A stretch of DNA of 64,000 nucleotides, from NCBI GenBank assembly GCA_963555815.3, contig CAUVWX020000001.1:1312001-1376000 (forward strand). The letters run 5' to 3'. Source of the stretch: a bacterium (GTDB lineage Bacteria; UBA8248; JACPRG01; G963555815). Below, piece by piece: positions 3,397-42,437 of the stretch. Under the pieces are notes generated by a model that had not been told where the DNA came from, searched no databases, and worked only from the letters and a program-made list of their open reading frames with translations. The stretch's first letter is position 1. Each line of letters starts with the position of its first letter. Position numbers and translations under genes: made by a program.

Positions 3397-4344
3397 TTAT
3401 TTCTGCCCTTGCCCCCTCGATGTGAAGACGTAGTCCAGGATTTCTCGGGCAAGACGCGCCTTGTCTTCCAGCGTGTTCATGATGGTATCCGTGACGAGGA
3501 CTTCGAGGCCTAGGGAGCGGATGGGGTCTCGCAATTCCTGATCCTGTTCGTCTAGCACAAAGATCTCGACCCAGTCAACGTAGCGGCGGGCGACGGCCAG
3601 GGCCGAGGCCTCTTCCCCCAATTCTTGCATCATCCGGGCGGCCGGGCCTTTCAGGGCCTTTCCGCGGACGAGGGGGCTGACCGCCACCTTTCGCCCCGGT
3701 GCCCTCTGCAGGGCCTCCCGCATCCCCGGAAGGGCCAGGATGGGACCGATGCTGACTAGGGGGTTGGAGGGGCAGAAGATAATGGCCTTGGCGCCAGCAA
3801 GGGTTTTTAGGACTTCAGCAGTGGGCCGGGCCGTCTCGATCCCTTCAAAGCGGACGGCCTCGATGGGGATCTCAGCCTTCTGGGCGACAAAATACTCCTG
3901 AAAGGGGATCTCCCGTCCTTGGGTTCTGACGCGGGTCTCGACACGGTCATCTGTCATGGGGAGGATCTTGGCTTGCAGCCCGAGGGCCTGGGAGAGGGAG
4001 GCCGTCACCTGGGTGAGGGTCTTTCCATCGTCCAGGAGGGCCCGGCGAAGGAGATGGGTTGCAAGATCTCGGTCGCCCAGGCGAAACCAGGGGGTGTGAC
4101 CGTAGCGTTTGAGCATCTGAAGGGCCTCTGTCGTGTCACTTGCTACGCCCCAGCCCTGGACCGGGTCAGCGATGTCGGCGAGCGTATAGAGGACGGTGTC
4201 GAGATCAGGGCAGACGAGGAGTCCGTGAAGCTTTAGGTCATCGGCCGTGTTGACGATGGCCGTGAGCCCGTCGGGGGGAAGGGCCTGGGAAAGACCCAGG
4301 ATGAGTTTTGCTCCTCCCACGCCTCCTGCCAGGGCCACGATCAT
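3397..4344 (-). CDS. cofD: 2-phospho-L-lactate/PEP transferase (LPPG:FO transferase)
   Basis: LAGGVGGAK, VNTADD, CPDLDTVLY, WFRLGDRD, PSNPLVSIGPIL, KGPAARMM. Confidence 0.95.
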   Translation of the reverse strand: MIVALAGGVGGAKLILGLSQALPPDGLTAIVNTADDLKLHGLLVCPDLDTVLYTLADIADPVQGWGVASDTTEALQMLKRYGHTPWFRLGDRDLATHLLRRALLDDGKTLTQVTASLSQALGLQAKILPMTDDRVETRVRTQGREIPFQEYFVAQKAEIPIEAVRFEGIETARPTAEVLKTLAGAKAIIFCPSNPLVSIGPILALPGMREALQRAPGRKVAVSPLVRGKALKGPAARMMQELGEEASALAVARRYVDWVEIFVLDEQDQELRDPIRSLGLEVLVTDTIMNTLEDKARLAREILDYVFTSRGQGQK

Positions 4345-4353
4345 GAGAACCCC

Positions 4354-4971
4354 TCAGCGGTGAAGAAGAGTCAGCTGGTATGGCGGACGGGGCGGGGGCA
4401 CCTCAGAGGGAAGAGGGCCCAGGGCCAGGAGGACGTGGGCGACGTAGCCGAGCGGAAGGTCGAGCGTGCGGTGGACCACCTGCGGGCAGAAGAGGGGGGC
4501 GCAGACCCAGCAGGCCGCGATCCCCTTGGCATGGGCGGCGAGCAGAATATTCTGGGTTGCAGCGCCCATGCTCTGGGCTGCCATGGTCTCCTCAGCGGCC
4601 CGGCGGGGGGGGTCCGGATAGCGGTCCATGCCTTCCATTGAGATGCAGGCCACGATGAGGACGGAGGCGGCAAGGAGGAGGTCATGGCTTTTTTTGATCC
4701 GGGCCCGCCGCCTTTCGTCGGAGAGTCCGTCCCGCTCGAGGTCCGCGTCGAAGGCCTCTCCCATCTTGAGGACGAGATTGCGACGGGCGGCAGGACTTGA
4801 GACCACAACAAAGCGCCAGGGCCTTGTCTTGTGAGGCGAAGGGGCCCACCCGGCGGCCTGGACGATCTCTTCCACCACGTCTTGGCTCACCTCCCCTCGG
4901 CCGAACTGACGTTGGGACCTCCGGCTCTCCAGGAAGTGAAGAAGAGATTTTTCGTCAAGGAGGTAGGACAC
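4354..4971 (-). CDS. nitroreductase-family protein resembling the FbiB C-terminal domain / FbiE (putative dehydro-F420-0 reductase)
   Basis: RRSQRQF, APSPHKTRPWRF, AQSMGAATQNILLAAHAKG, WVCAPLFCP; sits between cofH and cofD. Confidence 0.78.
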   Translation of the reverse strand: MSYLLDEKSLLHFLESRRSQRQFGRGEVSQDVVEEIVQAAGWAPSPHKTRPWRFVVVSSPAARRNLVLKMGEAFDADLERDGLSDERRRARIKKSHDLLLAASVLIVACISMEGMDRYPDPPRRAAEETMAAQSMGAATQNILLAAHAKGIAACWVCAPLFCPQVVHRTLDLPLGYVAHVLLALGPLPSEVPPPRPPYQLTLLHR

Positions 4972-5030
4972 AGCGAGCTCGCTTCTGGGCGTTTTGGGCC
5001 AAAAAGTGGGAGTCCACCGACGCCGACCGG

Positions 5031-6125
5031 CTAATTCAGCTTGTTGTAGAGGGTGTCCCGCTGAACCGGGGTCCGCCCGTTCTGGAGGATCGTCTCCCTA
5101 AGCTCCTCCACGCTCACCCGGTCACCCCACTTGGAGCCGGCCATGTTGGAGATCCGCTCCTCCATCAGGGTCCCTCCCACGTCGTTGACCCCGACCCGAA
5201 GGGCATGGCCTCCCGCCTTCAGGCCGATCTTGGGCCAGGCGGATTGGAGGTTCCGGATGGTGTCTCGAAAATAGATACGGCTGACGGCGTAGAGCTTAAA
5301 AACCTCTCGGTTCGAGATCATCTCCCGGATCTTGAAGAGGCTCCCCAGGGCGTTCTCATAGGGGATGAAGGGGAGGGGGACGAATTCGGTGATCCCGCCC
5401 GTCTTTTTCTGGATGGAGCGGATGACCTCCAGGTGCTCACCGACGTCCTCGGGTGTCTCTACGTGGCCGAACATGATGGTGGAGGTGGAGGGGATACCCT
5501 GGCGGTGGACCTCCGTGATGACGTCCACCCACCGCCCCGTATGGAGCTTATCCGGACAGATCACCTTCCGGACCCTCTCCACCAGGACCTCGGCCGCTGT
5601 CCCGGGGGTGCTCCCGAGGCCAGCCGCCCGAAGCTCCTTCACGACGTCCGAAACTTCTAGGCCCGATATCTCCGTCATGTAGTTGATCTCTTCCGGGGAG
5701 TAGGCGTGGAGGTGGACGCCTGGGATGATTTCTCGGACAAAGCGCAGGAGGTCCAGGTAGTAGTCAAAGGTCAAGTCAGGGTGGAGCCCTCCCTGGATGC
5801 AGATCTCGGTGACGTTGAAGGCCTTCGCTTCCTCGAGCTTCACCTTCATCGCTTCATGGCTGAAGAAGTAGGAGCCTGGCTGCCCCTTTCGGCGCGAAAA
5901 GCCGCAAAAGCGGCAGGAGCCAACGCAGATATTGGAGAAGTTCATGTTGCGGTTGACGACGTAGGTGGCCTCATTGCCCACGAGCTCTTCCCGGATGGAG
6001 TCGGCCAGGGCGAAGAGGGCTTCGGCCTCCAGGTCGTCCTGAGTCTTCAGGAGGACCGCAGCGTCCGTGGGACCGATCTCCTCTCCCCGCTCCGCCTTGG
6101 AGAAGGCGTCTTTGAAGGTGAGCAT
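5031..6125 (-). CDS. cofH: FO synthase subunit CofH (radical SAM)
   Basis: TYVVNRNMNFSNICVGSCRFCGF, QGGLHP, PGTAAEVL, STIMFGHVE, NDVGGTLMEERIS; start taken at ATG 6125. Confidence 0.92.
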   Translation of the reverse strand: MLTFKDAFSKAERGEEIGPTDAAVLLKTQDDLEAEALFALADSIREELVGNEATYVVNRNMNFSNICVGSCRFCGFSRRKGQPGSYFFSHEAMKVKLEEAKAFNVTEICIQGGLHPDLTFDYYLDLLRFVREIIPGVHLHAYSPEEINYMTEISGLEVSDVVKELRAAGLGSTPGTAAEVLVERVRKVICPDKLHTGRWVDVITEVHRQGIPSTSTIMFGHVETPEDVGEHLEVIRSIQKKTGGITEFVPLPFIPYENALGSLFKIREMISNREVFKLYAVSRIYFRDTIRNLQSAWPKIGLKAGGHALRVGVNDVGGTLMEERISNMAGSKWGDRVSVEELRETILQNGRTPVQRDTLYNKLN

Positions 6126-6212
6126 GGAGAAATCTCCTTCAAGCCGACATGAGTCAGCCATAGATGCATGAGCGAAGTTGGTATGGAGAAGCCGCCGACT
6201 CTATCAGCAGCG

Positions 6213-6689
6213 TCAACCTCCGAAAGTGACAATCCGGGTGGGCCGGACCTGATAGAGGACCCGTATCTCACCTTTTGGATCACGGAATGGATAGGGACGT
6301 TGGCCAAGATAAACTTCGGTCAGGTCGTCGATGTTTTGTGTCGCCAGATTCCCTCTCTTTTTGTCATCTTCGTCAATGATATCTTCAACTTTACCATATA
6401 TTGACATCCAGTGAAGCGGATTTTCTGGATTCACGATTATGATGCTCACATCACGGCGGGCGCGCAGATTCTTGTCTTTTTGCCGACCCCTGACAGAGTT
6501 CAAGTTGACGTAAGTTCCATCGTGATTCAGCCAGACCGGGGTCAACTGGGGCAACCCCTTCGCACCAATCGTCGCCAATATCGCCGTGACGCTCTTTTCT
6601 AGTAGCTGGCGGTAGGAATCAAGCAGCTCGTTCAAGCTCGAGACCTTCTTGCGGTCTCCGATCTTAAAAGCTTTACCCTGTCCGGGCAT
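6213..6689 (-). CDS. PPOX-class (FDOR-B) putative F420-dependent oxidoreductase
   Basis: LATIGAKGLPQLTPVW, GRQKDKNLR, split-barrel pattern; located inside the cof cluster. Confidence 0.85.
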   Translation of the reverse strand: MPGQGKAFKIGDRKKVSSLNELLDSYRQLLEKSVTAILATIGAKGLPQLTPVWLNHDGTYVNLNSVRGRQKDKNLRARRDVSIIIVNPENPLHWMSIYGKVEDIIDEDDKKRGNLATQNIDDLTEVYLGQRPYPFRDPKGEIRVLYQVRPTRIVTFGG

Positions 6690-6712
6690 GACGACATCGG
6701 CAATTTCTATTG

Positions 6713-7735
6713 CTATGGCGATCCCCCCTTTTCATTTTCCCGGGCCATTCCCGGAAAAGAGCAAAGAGCAGTCCGATGGGAAGCCATCGCCTCCCCTACC
6801 TCGGGCGAATACCACCCCTTTTCGATGTGCTCATCATAGATGGGGAGGCGGAACTTGAGCTCCAGGCCATTCGCCGCCAGGAGCGCTCGCAGGTCCTCGA
6901 TGTCGGGCCAGGGGCGGTCGCGGTTAATCAGATCCGGCTCGTCCGACAGGCCGCCCAGGTCGTCCGCCCCCGCCTCTATGGTTTCGAGGACCTCGGGGAT
7001 GAGATTCGGCGGGATCTGAAGGTGCACCTGTGGCGGGAGGATGGCCCGAGCCTCCCGGATAACCTGGAGCACCTCGGCCTTCTCTGGAGCGGGCCAGCCC
7101 GCCATCTCGGTCCCGGCCTGGGGATTGAGGGGTTGGACGATAACCTCCTGGATGTGGTCGTACTTCTCTTGGAGGGCCGCCAGGACCTCGAGGGTTTGCC
7201 TGCGCTCTTCCCAGGACTCCCCGATCCCAAAGAGGATGCCCGACGTGAAGGGGATCTGAAGCTCGCCAGCCGCCCGGACCGTCTCTACCCGAAGGGCGGG
7301 GGCCTTGGTGGGGGCTTGGTGGTGGGCCGCTCCTCGCTCCACTGCCGGGCTCAGTGCCTCCAGCATGACCCCCATGGAGGCGTTCACGTCCTTGAGGCGA
7401 GAGAGTTCATCGAGACTTAAGGTCCCGATGTTGGTGTGTGGCAGAAGATCTTCGTCGAGGAGGAGGAGGCAGACCTCGCGGATGTAGTCCACGTAAGTGG
7501 GAAAGCCCCAAGAGCGGAGCTCGCTGCGCATCTTGGGGTGGACATCAGGCTGCTCACCCGTCATGACGAGGGCCTCGACGGCCCCTTTCTTTCGCTCCTC
7601 TCGGGCGATGGCTCGGATCTCGGAGAGTTTTAGCAGGGCCGGCTTGTCGCTTCGAAAGGAGCAATAGCCGCAGCGGTTTCGGCACCAGTAGGTGACTGGG
7701 AGCGTGAAATTTCGGGAATAAGTGACCGTATGCAT
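6713..7735 (-). CDS. cofG: FO synthase subunit CofG (radical SAM)
   Basis: VTYSRNFTLPVTYWCRNRCGYCSF, LLPHTNIG, VNASMGVMLE, PFTSGILFGIGE, HIQEVIVQ, QIPPNL. Confidence 0.93.
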   Translation of the reverse strand: MHTVTYSRNFTLPVTYWCRNRCGYCSFRSDKPALLKLSEIRAIAREERKKGAVEALVMTGEQPDVHPKMRSELRSWGFPTYVDYIREVCLLLLDEDLLPHTNIGTLSLDELSRLKDVNASMGVMLEALSPAVERGAAHHQAPTKAPALRVETVRAAGELQIPFTSGILFGIGESWEERRQTLEVLAALQEKYDHIQEVIVQPLNPQAGTEMAGWPAPEKAEVLQVIREARAILPPQVHLQIPPNLIPEVLETIEAGADDLGGLSDEPDLINRDRPWPDIEDLRALLAANGLELKFRLPIYDEHIEKGWYSPEVGEAMASHRTALCSFPGMARENEKGGSP

Positions 7736-36410: not shown

Positions 36411-36486
36411 GGGCCGCTAGCTCATCGGGTAGAGCTCCTGCCTTTTAAGCAGGTGGTGCCAGGTTCGAGTCCTGGGCGGCTCACCA
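36411..36486 (+). tRNA. tRNA-Lys(TTT)
   Basis: GGGCCGCTAGCTCA..CCTGC CT TTT AA GCAGG..GGTTCGAGTCC..GCGGCTCACCA. Confidence 0.96.
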
Positions 36487-36524
36487 ATCGTCTGAGACCC
36501 GCTCTGGGTCTCTTTCCTGAGGAC

Positions 36525-36599
36525 GTCCCCATCGTCTAGCCCGGTCTAGGACACCGCCCTTTCACGGCGGTAACGGGGGTTCGAATCCCCCTGGGGACG
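36525..36599 (+). tRNA. tRNA-Glu(TTC)
   Basis: GTCCCCATCGTCTAG..CCGCC CT TTC AC GGCGG..GGTTCGAATCCCCCTGGGGACG, followed by CCCA rather than CCA. Confidence 0.95.
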
Positions 36600-36901
36600 C
36601 CCAAAATATCAATAGGTTACATAGATTATAGTGATACCGCAACTCTCACACCCTCCTGGGTGTCCATATAGGCGTCTATAACCCGTCGCAAACTGTGTAA
36701 TTCAGTCACACTCCGTATCACTTGCTATTTTCTGTGAATCCTTTAGGTTCCCTGACTAACCGGCCACAGTGCCATTCGCCGGAAAGGAAAAGGGGGAAAT
36801 TGTGTAACTATAGAAAATAATTGCCTTTCTATAATTGAGTGCGTAGTATATAAATAGAGTATTTTTTGCCTTCTTCAATTCCCACAGGGGGATGACGTCT
36901 A

Positions 36902-38153
36902 ATGCAAACCCGAAAGAGATGTCCGTATCTGAAATGGTTCGCGCTTTCCCTCACCATCCCGGCGCTGATTCTTTCCCTGTCCCTGCAAGCCAAAGCGCAA
37001 GAGCTGACAGAGTTTTTCGACGATGATGATGACCACGAGACCACGTTCACAGTGGGGGGAATTGAGTTCGAAATTATTATTGCTGAGGAGGACAATGTCC
37101 CCGTTTCGGCGACCACCGATATTTCCGGGGATCGGCAGCTTTTCGCAAACCGTGATTGAATTTGCAAACGACACTGAGAGGATTGAAGTCACCCTCGTCC
37201 TTTTCGGCAAGACTATTAGTCGCACGTTCGAGGGGGACGTAGATACCACGTTCCTAGATGCGGCCGACTTTGTGGTCGATGAATTGCTGAAGGCATTGGC
37301 CGGTGTTGGGGATAACGCCGCAGTAGCCAGCGCATCCGGGCTTGAATCGTCGCAGAGTGTTCAGAATGACCTTTTTGACAACGTGGTGCTGCAACGGCAG
37401 CCGACTAAGATGGAGCTAATAGAGCGTGCAAGGGCGGAGGAAGAAGGGGTGGCGGAGCTACCCTCTTCTGTCGGCGCCCTGCTGAGGTTTGAGGGGTTCT
37501 CCTTCCGAGGGCAGAGCGGATTCGCGGTTGGGACGACGCCAGCGTATGAATACGAGGGGGAAAGGCTTCGCTCGGGGGTTCTTCTGCCATACGAAAATGT
37601 CAACACTGAGGAACCGAATGTGGGGTTTCATCGGATCGGGCTCCTCGCCTATGCCAGCTACGCGGTGTTGACGGACGACCCCGATCCCCTCACCCTGCGG
37701 TTGGGGGGATATGGAAGCGTGAGTGCGACGGTATTTCACGCGGGGGATAGGCTTAAGGACTTTGCCACCTTTAGTGGCGGGCCCACAATCAGCGCGGAGA
37801 AGGAGTTCAAGACCCACATCATCGAGAATGTCATTGAAAGCATCACGGCCAGTTTTGGGTTCACTTTAACCGGCTCTCGAGCGACCACGCCTGGATCAGA
37901 GACGAAAACGTCGATCAAAACGGGGTTCAACCTGGGGGTTCCCATTGCCGACAATTACGTAGCCAACCTATTTACCGCCTACAACGTTCAAGTAGCCCCA
38001 AGCGTTCCCGACCCAGATTATTTCGACGTAGGCGCAGAGTTCATCATTTTCTTTACTCAGCTCCTTTCCGGAACCTTAGGGGTTAAGACGGTGCAGGGCC
38101 TTGAGGAATTCAAGTCCTTTGAAGGGTTCTTAGGGGTCATTTATCGGTTCTAG
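36902..38153 (+). CDS. putative outer-membrane beta-barrel protein (apparent +1 frameshift at about 37122-37130)
   Basis: Signal peptide ending AKA-Q in ORF 36902; second frame has amphipathic beta strands and ends GVIYRF; frames join on removing one base in ATTTCCGGGG. Confidence 0.65.
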
Positions 38154-38274
38154 TTATTTGCCTCGGTGCCTCTCAGGTTGAGCCGCTTATCGGGGGGCAC
38201 CCCTTCGCTCTGCGGGCTTCGCCCACTCAGTAACCATCCCTGGACCTTGCTATATTTGTTCACGGGAGGAACCG

Positions 38275-38928
38275 GTGATGCCATCCAAGGTGGCCTTCCT
38301 TAGCGCCCTCCTTTTCTTCTTGATTGGGCCGACATTAATACCTGGTGCAGGGGTCGATGTCGGCTGGGCGCAGAAAAAGAAAGTGTCGGTCGTTGGCGTC
38401 GTCACGGAGGTGAAGGATAAGACCTGGCGGGATCATCGGATCGGGTTCGGAATCGCCAACCTAATTTCCCAAGAGCTTTTTAAGTCCGGCCGGTTTACCG
38501 TCGTCGAGGAAAAAAAAGAGGTCCTTGAACAAATTTCCGAGTTCACACGCCGGAATTGGACCAACCCTGAGAACACTCCCAGGGGCGAAAAGGCCCTGTC
38601 CCTGGCAAGAAAATTGGAAGTCGACCTTGTTGCGGTCGGTCGAGTGATTTCCTACAGTCATGGACGGTCCCGACTTGCAATTGGACTATTCGTTAAAGGG
38701 CAACAAAAGATCGTTGTAAATGTGGAAGTTGGAATTATTGGAAAGTCACTTCCAAAGACCTTGCTTGCTCAAGGAGAGGGAAGCTCTAAGTTTACCTCGC
38801 AGGGACTCGTATTCGAGCTCCGGAAAGATGTGGTGTTGTTTGACGAAACCACTGTCGGCCGGGCGACGAAAGCGGCGGTCAGGGAGGCCATTAACCGGCT
38901 ATTAGAACTCCTACCCCCTTCGATTTGA
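38275..38928 (+). CDS. CsgG/HfaB-like exported protein
   Basis: Signal peptide; GIANLISQELFKSGRFTVVE, ARKLEVDLVAVGRV, VGRATKAAVREAI pattern of the CsgG/TolB-N-like fold. Confidence 0.65.
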   Translation: MMPSKVAFLSALLFFLIGPTLIPGAGVDVGWAQKKKVSVVGVVTEVKDKTWRDHRIGFGIANLISQELFKSGRFTVVEEKKEVLEQISEFTRRNWTNPENTPRGEKALSLARKLEVDLVAVGRVISYSHGRSRLAIGLFVKGQQKIVVNVEVGIIGKSLPKTLLAQGEGSSKFTSQGLVFELRKDVVLFDETTVGRATKAAVREAINRLLELLPPSI

Positions 38929-39059
38929 GGGGATTGGGAAGAGAAGGAGATTTTCTTTGGAATGCCCAACCCGGGGTGACAGGGACCGACGGTATACACG
39001 GGATGGCGCAATTGAATGAGGATTGAGGAGCGAGGGTTTATATTAAACGGAATCATAAG

Positions 39060-40803
39060 TTATGGGCTTAGCGTTCCTGGTAAGGTCGGTTGTGAAAGAC
39101 CACGCCCCACAACGCCCGGCGTGTGAAATCGCTTTCCTTCCAGAATTTCATCGACTGTCAGCATCTGCATCCGGCTGTATTTGACCCCATCAATCTCCAG
39201 ATCCCCGGCTTGCGCCATATCCCGGTGAAAATTCCGGTCCTTCGTTTGCCCTAGAGGGTCCATGATGATCAACCCCGCCAGGAGAGCCTCGTCATTGTCT
39301 AGGACGCCCCTAAGGGCGCGTACTGCGTTAATGTTCACGTTCTTTCCGCCCTTGACCTCAATCGCCACACTCTGAAGGGTTTTCTCTCTCGGAATGGCGA
39401 AGTACAGGCGACCATCAATCCCACCGTCCGTCGTTCGTTTCGTGGTAACGAATCCGTCCACCTCTTCAACCGCCCATTTCTGGAAATGGTACTTATCCCG
39501 CGTCCATAGATCTTTTGCACCTTCGATGGTCCGTGGGACGCCGTCAATGATGAAATCTTGGCCTTCCACCAATCCAAGGCGATCCTGTAATCTAACCTTT
39601 GTCACCCGCTTTATGGCGTGAATTGCAATGTCGATCCCGATCCATCGGCGGCCTTCGATGTGGGCGGCCTCAAGCGTTGTGGCGCATCCGCAAAACGGGT
39701 CCATGACAACGTCTCCTGTATTCGACGAGACGTTTATTATTCGATTAAGGAGTCCTGCGGGCTTCTGCGTTTTATAACCGAGGCGTTCCGGTGACGTTGG
39801 ACCGAGCCACATGACATCTTCATCAATGCCTTCGTCGGTGCCAAAAAGCGTCCCGTCCGTGTAGGGTTGATATGCCCAAATATCTTGGTACGGTTGGCCA
39901 TCTTCCGCTTTGAGATATCTCACAGGATGAGGCCACGCTGCGCCATCTTTAATTTCAATCAACTCCATTTCATACAATGCTTCAAGCCTCTCTAAAACGC
40001 CTGCGCTTGTCTTCTCATGTGGAAGTTGCTCATTCAAGAAGGTTGGTATGGCCCAATGCCGGTTTTTTGCTGTTGGATCAAAACACCGCCACGTCTCGCC
40101 AGATTCTCCGCCAGAAACTCCTGCTCCAGTAAGAATGTTGCCACCGGTGATCTGTTTAGATTTTCCCGACGGATCAATTTTGTACCGTTTTTCAACGTGC
40201 TCCTTTGAATATGCCCTCTTATGGATATTGAACTTGTAATTGTCCGACGCGCTATAGAACAGTAGCGTATCGTGAATTGCTCCATAAGTTCGACGGCTAT
40301 TATGAGAGCCTGTGCGTCTCCAGATAATTTCATTGCGGAAGTTTGAATGTCCGAAAATGGCGTCCATCATGACCTTGATGTAGTGGCTGGCGTTCGGGTC
40401 GCAATGGAGGTATATCGAGCCCGTCGGCTTAAGGATGATCTTCATCTGGATCAACCGTTCCACCATGTAGGACAGATATGCTAGAAGGCGCGGATTCGTT
40501 GCTCTCAATGCGTTCATCCAAAGCTTCCAGAATTCCGCAACCTCATCTTCTATCCCGGCGTCCCGCATGAGAACCGGCATGGTGCGGATCGCGCGTTCCC
40601 GTTCCTCGTCCAGGGTCCAGAGATCGCAGAACGCCTCAATCTGGTCCGGCAACGGTTCGCCCGGTTTCATCCTTATAAATCGCGTTGTACTCGCGGTTTG
40701 AATTGAAGGGCGGATCCAGGTAAATCAGATCAACGCTGTGCTTCCGCATTTCCTGGAAGATGGTCAAACAGTCTCCGTAAAAAAGCTTGTTGGGGCCGCT
40801 CAT
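39060..40803 (-). CDS. beta-class N6-adenine/N4-cytosine DNA methyltransferase fused to a C-terminal PD-(D/E)XK (Mrr-like) endonuclease domain (apparent +1 frameshift at about 40656)
   Basis: LIYLDPPFNS (motif IV), GSIYLHCD, YKTQKP, DPFCGCATT (motif I), then DGGIDG..IEVKGG; frames join KDETGR|PLPDQIE on removing one A. Confidence 0.87.
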
Positions 40804-41676
40804 GCGAAGCATCCCCGCATGAACAGGCCGAAGGAATCCTCGTCCTTCCGGTGGTTGTACTTCCAGCAAGCCTCTGCAACATAGAGCGGCGTGTAGTGCT
40901 TGCGGTAATGGTGATGCGATCCGTACCATGCCCGCTTGAGAAGCGCCCAAAATTCTTCAATCGTGTTCGTGTGCGTATCGCCGTCGGCATAGCTTTCCCT
41001 GATGGTTGATGACGGCATGCTTGAACCTGGACCAGACCGCTCGATAGGATTTATATTCGTCTGTGATGAGCAAAGAGCCGTCGGGGTTGACCGTATTCTT
41101 GATGAAGTCGAGAACCCCGCGGCCCGTCATGTCGGTGACGACCTGGGCGACAACCTTTCCGCCCCTTTCTACCGCCCCTATGACCGGGATCTTGCTAGTT
41201 CCGCGCCCGCGAGGATTGGGCTTGTCTTCATCCCGCCTGTTTCCCTTCCTGGGCTTGCCCCCGATGTAGCATTCATCCGCCTCGACAATACCCTGAAGGG
41301 GCGGTCCCTGTTCAGCGGCCATTGCCGACCGGATGCGAACCTGTAAAAACCAGGCGGTCGGTTGCGTGAGTTCAAGATCTCTGGCAAGCTGGCAACTGGA
41401 AATGCTTTTCTTGGCGTGGACGATCAGCCCAATGGCAAGGAACCACTTTTGAATCGGGATTCTGGTTTTCTCGAAGATCGTCCCGGATAAGACATTGAAG
41501 CTGGACCTGCAATCGTAGCAATTCCAGCGTCCGATCCGGTCCTTTTCCGCTTTTGCGGCAACCTTGATGCTTCCGCAAAAAGGGCAACATGGCGTATTGC
41601 CCCATCGGATATTCTCAAGGTGTTCAAGGCAGGCTTCTTGATCTGGGAAGCGGTGGAAGATGGTGAGCAGGTTCAT
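40800..41676 (-). CDS. IS1595-family (ISXO2-like) DDE transposase (apparent +1 frameshift at about 40998)
   Basis: Zn ribbon CPFCG..CYDC, GTIFEKTRIP, ISSCQLAR, VEADECYIGG, ITDEY, VINHQ|ESYADGDTHTNTIEEFWALLKR. Confidence 0.92.
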
Positions 41677-41680
41677 TCTG

Positions 41681-41965
41681 TCACTCCTCCCCCATGAAGG
41701 CATCTATTTCGTATTCCAGAATGCCATTCCAAAGGGAATATAAAATTCGCGTGGATAAGCAGGAAGTTGTCTTCAGGTAGGCCTCCTCCTTGGACATAAA
41801 TGATTCGGCTCGTATGTACCCACTTCTGGCGTTCAATAGGCCGTGGGTGTCCTTAAGCCACAGGACGTAATCTTTCGATTCCTCATCGTAGGCGATATGT
41901 CCCAGCTCTTCGGTTCTGTCCCCGCGATACTGGATGAGTTTGTCTCCATCCCAATAAATTTCCAT
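41681..41965 (-). CDS. hypothetical protein (94 aa) inside the IS
   Basis: ATG ORF with protein-like composition lying between the TIR and the transposase; its end overlaps the transposase RBS (GGAGGAG-TGA). Confidence 0.6.
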   Translation of the reverse strand: MEIYWDGDKLIQYRGDRTEELGHIAYDEESKDYVLWLKDTHGLLNARSGYIRAESFMSKEEAYLKTTSCLSTRILYSLWNGILEYEIDAFMGEE

Positions 41966-42437
41966 CCTTGAGAATATATACTCTCACCCCGCTCCCGTCA
42001 AGCCCATAACTTATAATTCCGTAGAAAATTTCCGGGAGAAAGGTCCGGGAGAAAGGTTCTCTCCCACCCATTCCCACAAAAATTTCCCTCAGCTCTCCCG
42101 GTAGCTGATTCTTTCAGTCTTTGAGGAAGAGTTCCTCTATGCGTTTCCTTACCCGAAAAGCTTAATCTTACCCGCCCTTCCGGGTCCTCCCAGCTCCTCC
42201 TTGACTCTGAAGTCGCCGATGTGTTCCCATTCTCCATATTCTGGAATAAGCAGGATGAGCAAGGCAGATGGGGGGCGAGCCATGAGGCGACCTCTCGGGA
42301 GTGGGTGCGCCGAGGATCAATGGATTTTTGTGGTATCACCCGCCCTTAAGGGGCAGGTTCCATTCGTTTCCCTGAAGATTCACCCCTTCTGGGTTTAAAG
42401 CTCGAGGGGAAGGGTGGCGTGGTGGGGGCGAGTCGTG

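Follow-up and report, generated by a model that had tools for sequence, protein, structure and literature searches.

How does a gene that joins a DNA methyltransferase to a nuclease come to lie inside an insertion sequence (IS), overlapping the transposase gene, and what would such a unit do for its host or for itself? The question is raised by a 2,974-bp element in a 64,000-nucleotide stretch of a bacterial genome (GTDB lineage UBA8248; assembly GCA_963555815.3, contig CAUVWX020000001.1, positions 1,312,001 to 1,376,000), hereafter called the window, in which an earlier reading of the sequence (the original prediction) had recognized an IS1595-family transposon with a single-chain methyltransferase-endonuclease as cargo. 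Our analyses suggest that, on balance, the element is probably a self-mobile IS1595 transporter IS carrying a predicted one-protein restriction-modification enzyme of exchangeable specificity. Its ends and two long genes are listed here in window coordinates; counts of relatives refer to the best 80 of 294 stretches encoding a relative, with one genome per species.

39048..39069, terminal inverted repeat at the cargo (right) end; 21/22 identity to the opposite end, and the repeat motif occurs at the cargo end in 56/80 relatives
39060..40803, minus strand, beta-class amino-methyltransferase fused to a predicted Mrr-type PD-(D/E)xK nuclease domain, 580 amino acids (Pfam N6_N4_Mtase, 1e-36)
40800..41676, minus strand, IS1595-family DDE transposase with a zinc ribbon, about 291 amino acids; its stop codon overlaps the cargo start
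42000..42021, terminal inverted repeat at the transposase (left) end; 21/22 identity, and the motif occurs at that end in 58/80 relatives

The architecture first described for the element held up throughout: 22-bp repeats bound three co-oriented open reading frames (ORFs), the transposase and methyltransferase genes overlap in an ATGA at 40800-40803, and the methyltransferase stop codon (39060-39062) lies inside the repeat. Assignment to IS1595 was equally sound, as the single transposase matches the DDE_Tnp_IS1595 profile PF12762 (9e-22 and 9e-12, in two pieces), the N-terminal zinc ribbon PF12760 (6e-12) and, above its cut-off, NCBIfam NF033547. A passenger unrelated to transposition lies between the repeats, as in transporter IS. 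Both element ends begin with CGG, which we take to be the form of the ends in the ISNha5 subgroup of IS1595.

In the assembly, both long genes contain one extra base, at 40997 in the transposase gene and at 40656 in the methyltransferase-nuclease gene. Together with the single copy and the missing target duplication, these two frameshifts could describe a dead relic, an outcome that the original prediction had itself named as fatal to its proposal. Short-read contigs from public runs (at most five samples from two studies, one run possibly being the source sample) argue against it: the extra base at 40656 is absent from 4/4 runs whose contigs otherwise differ from the window by 0-2 bases, and the one at 40997 is absent from 3/3 covering runs and from one further run, X8; another run spans neither position. 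Two runs labelled sponge metagenome contained only 6% of words, and no habitat is assigned. In addition, an unbroken 580-amino-acid protein from another contig, P0406, is identical over the 531 residues compared. Because near-identical contigs lack the extra bases and this identical protein is unbroken, both frameshifts are likely assembly errors and the window element is likely intact; the relic explanation is already largely refuted, and we give it almost no credence. P0406, together with 61 distinct full-length relatives, also confirms that methylase and nuclease domain form one chain.

Mobility is best seen among the relatives, which, judging from record titles, span Chloroflexota, Acidobacteriota groups, Alpha-, Gamma- and Deltaproteobacteria, Gemmatimonadota groups and Nitrospinota. 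A transposase match lies at most 400 bp upstream of the cargo at 64/80 loci, and the repeat motif (built from the same 80 loci; a shuffled control gave 18 hits per million bases) is present at both ends of 47, which speaks against the idea that homologous methyltransferases generally lie outside IS1595 repeats. Target duplications matching at 7/8 or 8/8 bp, 86% AT, flank 33 of the 80, that is, 33 of the 47 with both repeats. Copies that are 99.8-100% identical occupy separate sites of one genome (for example L018/L019, L032/L033 and L041/L043), and these multi-copy insertions show that the element has recently moved together with its cargo. Two metagenome contigs, L106 and L107, start and stop exactly at the repeats, as expected for an assembly-collapsed multi-copy element.

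The original prediction went further and held that the cargo is integral, translationally coupled and hard-wired into the element by its stop codon. The coupling is supported by an ATGA or GTGA stop-start overlap at 54/61 scorable loci. The stop codon, however, falls within 22 bp of the element end in only 6/47 relatives and its position inside the repeat is thus an incidental feature, not a general one, and the cargo can be separated from the element. In L099, the same ends and a transposase of 72% identity accompany a different cargo; L084 contains a non-autonomous 1,660-bp unit (5746-7405) of repeats, 8-bp duplication and methylase-nuclease gene only; and near-full-length homologs of 34-43% identity are found on plasmids (5 records) and phages (25 records), the annotation of the two plasmids viewed showing no transposase less than 3 kb from the cargo homolog. 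One homolog, WP_044552088.1, belongs to Mesorhizobium japonicum pMLa. A search of virus contigs found one locus, L146, where positions 4001-5714 hold a methylase-nuclease gene and the right repeat with no transposase match, next to a repressor-like gene.

The nature of the enzyme was examined through its motifs, modelled fold and conservation, with two regions of the chain considered separately.

39105..39593, minus strand, C-terminal nuclease domain, residues 404-566, with E446, D459, D463, E482 and K484
39798..40316, minus strand, variable middle domain (residues 163-335), predicted to recognize the target and so labelled on its position and one weak fold match

Motif IV (residue 30) precedes motif I (residue 368), the order of beta-class enzymes, and a model of P0002, an 82% identical protein (predicted local distance difference test score, pLDDT, 85), matches beta-class methylases at Z 20-26, with EcoP15I Mod (Type III) as the best whole-chain match in Foldseek. 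The DPPF, FxGxA and D-x-EVK motifs noted earlier are present as DPPF, DPFCGCA and DGGID...EVK, and the methylase motifs are invariant in 61/61 distinct full-length proteins. The C-terminal domain matches Mrr_cat at 8e-5, a weak score that is above the cut-off as a domain, and 61/61 members match at E<=0.05. Over residues ~420-555 of the P0002 model, the fold resembles those of MspJI (Z 9.4, root-mean-square deviation (rmsd) 2.6, 119 aligned), AspBHI (8.8) and LlaBIII (8.7). D459, D463 and K484 are kept in 61/61 proteins and E482 in 59/61, and the motif I glutamate is invariant in 111 proteins. The nuclease domain evolves under a ratio of nonsynonymous to synonymous change (dN/dS) of 0.04-0.14 in 7 of 9 hand-picked close pairs, like the methylase; the ratio is 0.39 in one pair with few changes and undefined in the other.

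The protein shares features with several known enzymes. Like Mrr-family domains of the Type ISP enzymes LlaGI and LlaBIII and of MspJI (PMC2790908), the nuclease has a motif I glutamate near a conserved phenylalanine, the DxxxD of motif II and the lysine of motif III, and the LlaGI equivalents of D459, D463 and K484 (D74, D78 and K94) are critical for cleavage (PMC2790908). Unlike those enzymes, it has glutamate rather than glutamine in motif III (in 59/61 close relatives), and neither a helicase motor nor a methyl-reader domain accompanies it. Type IIG, IIC and IIL enzymes (Eco57I, BpuSI, MmeI) likewise unite a methylase, a recognition domain and a single nuclease site in one polypeptide (PMC3874165), but Type IIG is defined by a gamma-class methylase with an N-terminal nuclease and a C-terminal recognition domain (PMC3874165, PMC6158711), whereas here the methylase has beta order and fold, the nuclease is C-terminal and the predicted recognition domain lies in the middle. 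With Type III Mod (EcoP15I), the protein shares beta-class order and an inserted middle domain, and EcoP15I provides the only fold match, a weak one, to that middle. Type III Mod requires a separate, ATP-driven Res subunit; this family has a fused nuclease instead, and the repeats enclose neither room nor an ORF for an adjacent res gene, here or in the 2.4-2.7-kb relatives.

Is cutting what selection maintains? A sister family has the same methylase with an HNH domain in the nuclease slot, and its HNH motif is intact in 77/79 proteins. That nuclease domains of two unrelated folds occupy this slot, each with its catalytic residues conserved, is the best indirect sign that cutting is selected. 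The same observation bears on the possibility that the cargo is a mobile solitary methyltransferase, which would rewrite the host methylome or shield the element and its carriers from other restriction systems, the C-terminal domain being a weak nickase or a DNA-binding or dimerisation module. Invariant methylase motifs, serine at motif III in 64/142 distant relatives, full-length homologs in 25 phage records (anti-restriction methylases are common in phages; PMC12707154) and a best whole-chain match to Type III Mod, which lacks its own nuclease, all fit that proposal. It accounts poorly for the conservation of catalytic residues in both Mrr-type and HNH domains and for the purifying selection on the nuclease domain; serine variants at motif III, moreover, are active in Cfr10I, NgoMIV and others (PMC2790908). 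We consider a solitary methyltransferase rather unlikely.

Exchangeable specificity, which the original prediction did not consider, is suggested by the middle domain, which sits where the recognition domain of a beta-class enzyme is expected. Median identity among 37 elements with complete transposases is 61% for the transposase, 75% and 81% for the methylase parts, 67% for the nuclease and 29% for the middle. Across 29 elements with long middles, transposase and core tree distances correlate (Mantel 0.52, p 0.001); the middle is uncorrelated with the transposase or the core (Mantel -0.06, p ~0.7). Transposase and core trees conflict in 6/10 supported splits, and recombination is therefore not confined to the middle. 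At the DNA level, L057 and L085 have flanks of 82% and 95% identity around a middle that cannot be aligned, and L011/L035 and L042/L056 show the same pattern of conserved flanks and divergent middle. A further candidate swap, L021/L063, was rejected, the difference being a deletion. Folded alone (pLDDT 91), the middle matched a single chain at Z>=2 among 48,161, EcoP15I Mod residues 251-387, and this match is weak (Z 4.8, rmsd 3.8, 94 aligned).

The pool of middle domains extends to the HNH family. When the middles of 154 Mrr-type proteins were compared with those of 79 HNH-type proteins, the best match (best of 79, in a set found with one query) reached 50% identity or more in 92 of the 154, with a maximum of 76%; in those best pairs the N-parts are 43% identical (median) and the C-termini unrelated; the window protein's own middle reaches only 34%. 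One methylase-HNH fusion lies in L101 (1397-4373, G001:C6), an element of 2,977 bp that belongs to a distant IS1595 lineage and has its own repeats and an 8-bp duplication. A transposase-plus-gene pair similar to that of L101 directly adjoins the Mrr-type element in L019. A co-oriented upstream transposase accompanies HNH-type genes at 2/15 loci in 51 genomes, with 2 further pairings among 30 transposase loci, indicating that the HNH family is tied to IS1595 less tightly than the Mrr family.

The diversity of middles also bears on whether the cargo serves transposition, by methylating the ends or promoter or through processing of transposition intermediates by the nuclease. Co-transcription and overlap with the transposase gene would suit such a helper or regulator. 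However, no fixed end site can be the target, because the ends are conserved while the middles of 49 proteins form 41 groups at 60% identity, and the two genes occur apart, in a same-type element without this cargo (L099) and on two plasmids with the cargo and no transposase annotated within 3 kb. The earlier suggestion that methylation regulates transposition is thus unlikely, and we regard a helper role of either kind as very improbable.

Expression of both genes would start at the left end, where two further features lie.

41973..42001, minus strand, predicted sigma-70 promoter; the first bases of its -35 box are the final two of the left repeat, and the spacer is 17 bp
41681..41965, minus strand, orphan ORF of 94 amino acids between the promoter and the transposase gene, specific to the window copy

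The predicted promoter, a feature absent from the original prediction, matches consensus at 10/12 positions, which taken alone is at chance level in a promoter and terminator scan; the same geometry, with a -10 box 16-18 bp on, recurs at 28/40 left ends vs 1/40 right ends. The orphan ORF has no family match, no homolog except itself and weak Atlas look-alikes only, and it is missing from 89 other loci. Longer relatives contain other small ORFs inside the repeats (L031:5600-5872, L054:7476-7982, L056:7560-8291, L090:7484-8011 and L085:7620-8072), with no informative Pfam match except a GOLD-like domain in L085; some may resemble winged-helix, SLATT or HicAB proteins.

A tight, conserved link to the transposase could also be the signature of an addiction module, in which, after loss of the element, residual nuclease would kill daughters with unmethylated DNA and so stabilise the element; some plasmid restriction-modification systems kill after loss (PMC12707154). 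In a single chain, however, both activities would be expected to dilute together, and broken or interrupted copies exist, among them L063, L068, L074, L075 and a related gene split by an IS1595 transposase in the window genome. Addiction therefore appears improbable.

We return to the transporter IS with a one-protein restriction-modification enzyme and how it might work. The left-end promoter would drive a single transcript, and the stop-start overlap would tie cargo translation to that of the transposase and hold the cargo level low. The protein would dimerise, by analogy with other beta-class methylases, its middle domain would read a short site, and it would methylate host DNA there, probably at N6-adenine; unmethylated incoming DNA would be cut once the nuclease domains of molecules bound at their sites come together. 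In a newly entered host, a low protein level would favour methylation ahead of cutting. Enzymes with both activities fused are expected to methylate without cutting while their concentration is low (PMC12707154), a property that would help the element to establish itself after transposition. Specificity would change through recombination in the conserved sequences that flank the middle domain, the transposase would carry the resulting variants between replicons and phyla, and the element would benefit by protecting its host against phages and plasmids. A broader proposal, which we consider possible but a little short of probable, is that these proteins constitute a single-chain class on a Type III Mod chassis, with an interchangeable Mrr or HNH nuclease replacing Res, and that two IS1595 lineages share a pool of recognition domains and distribute new specificities across phyla.

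Several observations pull against this interpretation. Regarding cutting, the motif III position in wider relatives (150 representatives of 2,156 hits) is S in 64, E in 62 and Q in 11 of 142, with the two aspartates and the lysine conserved at 94-98%, and some serine-variant relatives may be inactive; 40/61 domains also match a Pfam family named for inactive restriction endonucleases, the window protein falling below its cut-off; and PADLOC yields generic methylase models only, with no restriction-enzyme model for the C-terminal domain. Regarding specificity, the label of recognition domain, which is predicted, draws on position and the one weak fold match at Z 4.8, and a single protein with one recognition domain may methylate one strand only, in which case a rule such as two-site cleavage would be needed. 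Regarding mobility, the window copy is single and has no target duplication, and the 80 loci were recruited with the cargo as query and include repeat copies from single genomes, so that their counts are not independent. With the transposase as query in metagenomes, this cargo was adjacent in only 9/42 loci, while all 5 near-complete transposase matches of at least 57% have it alongside; the link between transposase and cargo is specific to one clade and not absolute.

Parts of this picture have precedents. IS1595 transporter IS (ISNha5, tISCpe8, MTnSag1) have been described as passenger-carrying (PMC11891212, PMC5704250, PMC8101967), and IS1595 target duplications are usually 8 bp (PMC8101967). 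The window family resembles them in its one DDE transposase with a zinc ribbon, short inverted repeats, 8-bp duplications in relatives and an internal passenger, but the transporter IS passengers named in the parts of these sources consulted are regulators and resistance genes (PMC11891212, PMC5704250), whereas this family carries, across phyla, a methylase-nuclease fusion overlapping the transposase. A methyltransferase passenger is named for IS220, of the IS1380 family (PMC11891212, PMC5704250). Units in Xanthomonas oryzae and Neisseria gonorrhoeae likewise have restriction-modification genes between inverted repeats, with 8-bp duplications, but they have no transposase or a likely inactivated one and their cargo is Type IIP or IIG (PMC2853133), while the family described here is autonomous and multi-copy. 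Recognition domains are known to move between non-orthologous Type III mod genes of Helicobacter pylori (PMC3467074), and the same paper refers to Siguier 2009 on IS elements that flank restriction-modification genes, so that cargo of this kind may already be catalogued in Siguier 2009. The literature searched yielded no paper on this element or this fusion, and the sections of PMC9296519, PMC11754643 and PMC4738411 consulted contain nothing on either; Siguier 2009 and 2014, ISfinder and REBASE, which lie outside that scope, may list it. Passenger-carrying IS, mobile restriction-modification genes and moving recognition domains are thus already published in general, and what the present analysis adds is the evidence of intactness, the end-anchored promoter, the decoupling statistics and the middle domains common to both nuclease families.

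One further feature marks the genomic site of the window copy.

42022..42029, likely original 8-bp target half, unduplicated at 39040-39047; similarity to the same-genus genome G001 restarts here (7/8 match) and the far side is unrelated

The element (GC content 52% vs 59% for the window) is the only copy in the 2.08-Mb genome, where no further repeat matches were found at up to 5 mismatches, and the 8 bp flanking each end differ. It sits at the margin of a variable island that follows tRNA-Lys and tRNA-Glu; similarity to G001 ends at these tRNAs and restarts at the 8 bp beside the left repeat. We infer that a deletion or replacement tied to the element may have occurred on the cargo-end side. 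The genome itself contains no empty site, and no clean one was found in relatives; in G001, the interval from the tRNA pair to the left-end flank is occupied by other genes. The island itself (36411-39047) contains a 376-amino-acid ORF without a Pfam family and a CsgG-like gene, where G001 has different genes.

The same genome contains other methylase loci. In L147 (592-3052; G000:C1:1147092-1149552), an IS1595 transposase gene overlaps, again in an ATGA, a D12-class (Dam-like) adenine methylase gene. A distinct gene for a PDDEXK_11 nuclease comes next, and methylase and nuclease may together be a restriction-modification cargo of two genes; a search for repeats bounding the transposase-methylase pair found none. 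L148 (G000:C1:1073311-1075922) is a 2,612-bp unit with different repeats, an 8-bp duplication and a distant methylase-Mrr gene (37% identical), which is split by an oppositely oriented IS1595 transposase gene and two small ORFs. Elsewhere are three large methylase genes, beta-class, Mod-like and members of one family (G000:C1:282986-285775, 696127-698724 and 1404223-1406541), and a similar ORF lies upstream of each.

If restriction is indeed its function, the protein would be a single-chain enzyme that departs from the layout published for Type IIG, in a family of about 480-580 amino acids; if it only methylates, it would still provide a route by which transposition rewrites host methylomes. 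Should the favoured interpretation be correct, the family would constitute a natural library of dozens of swappable recognition domains, on which the relation of sequence to specificity could be mapped directly and which might yield small programmable methylases and nucleases, and ordinary insertion sequences would move and diversify defence specificities between phyla.

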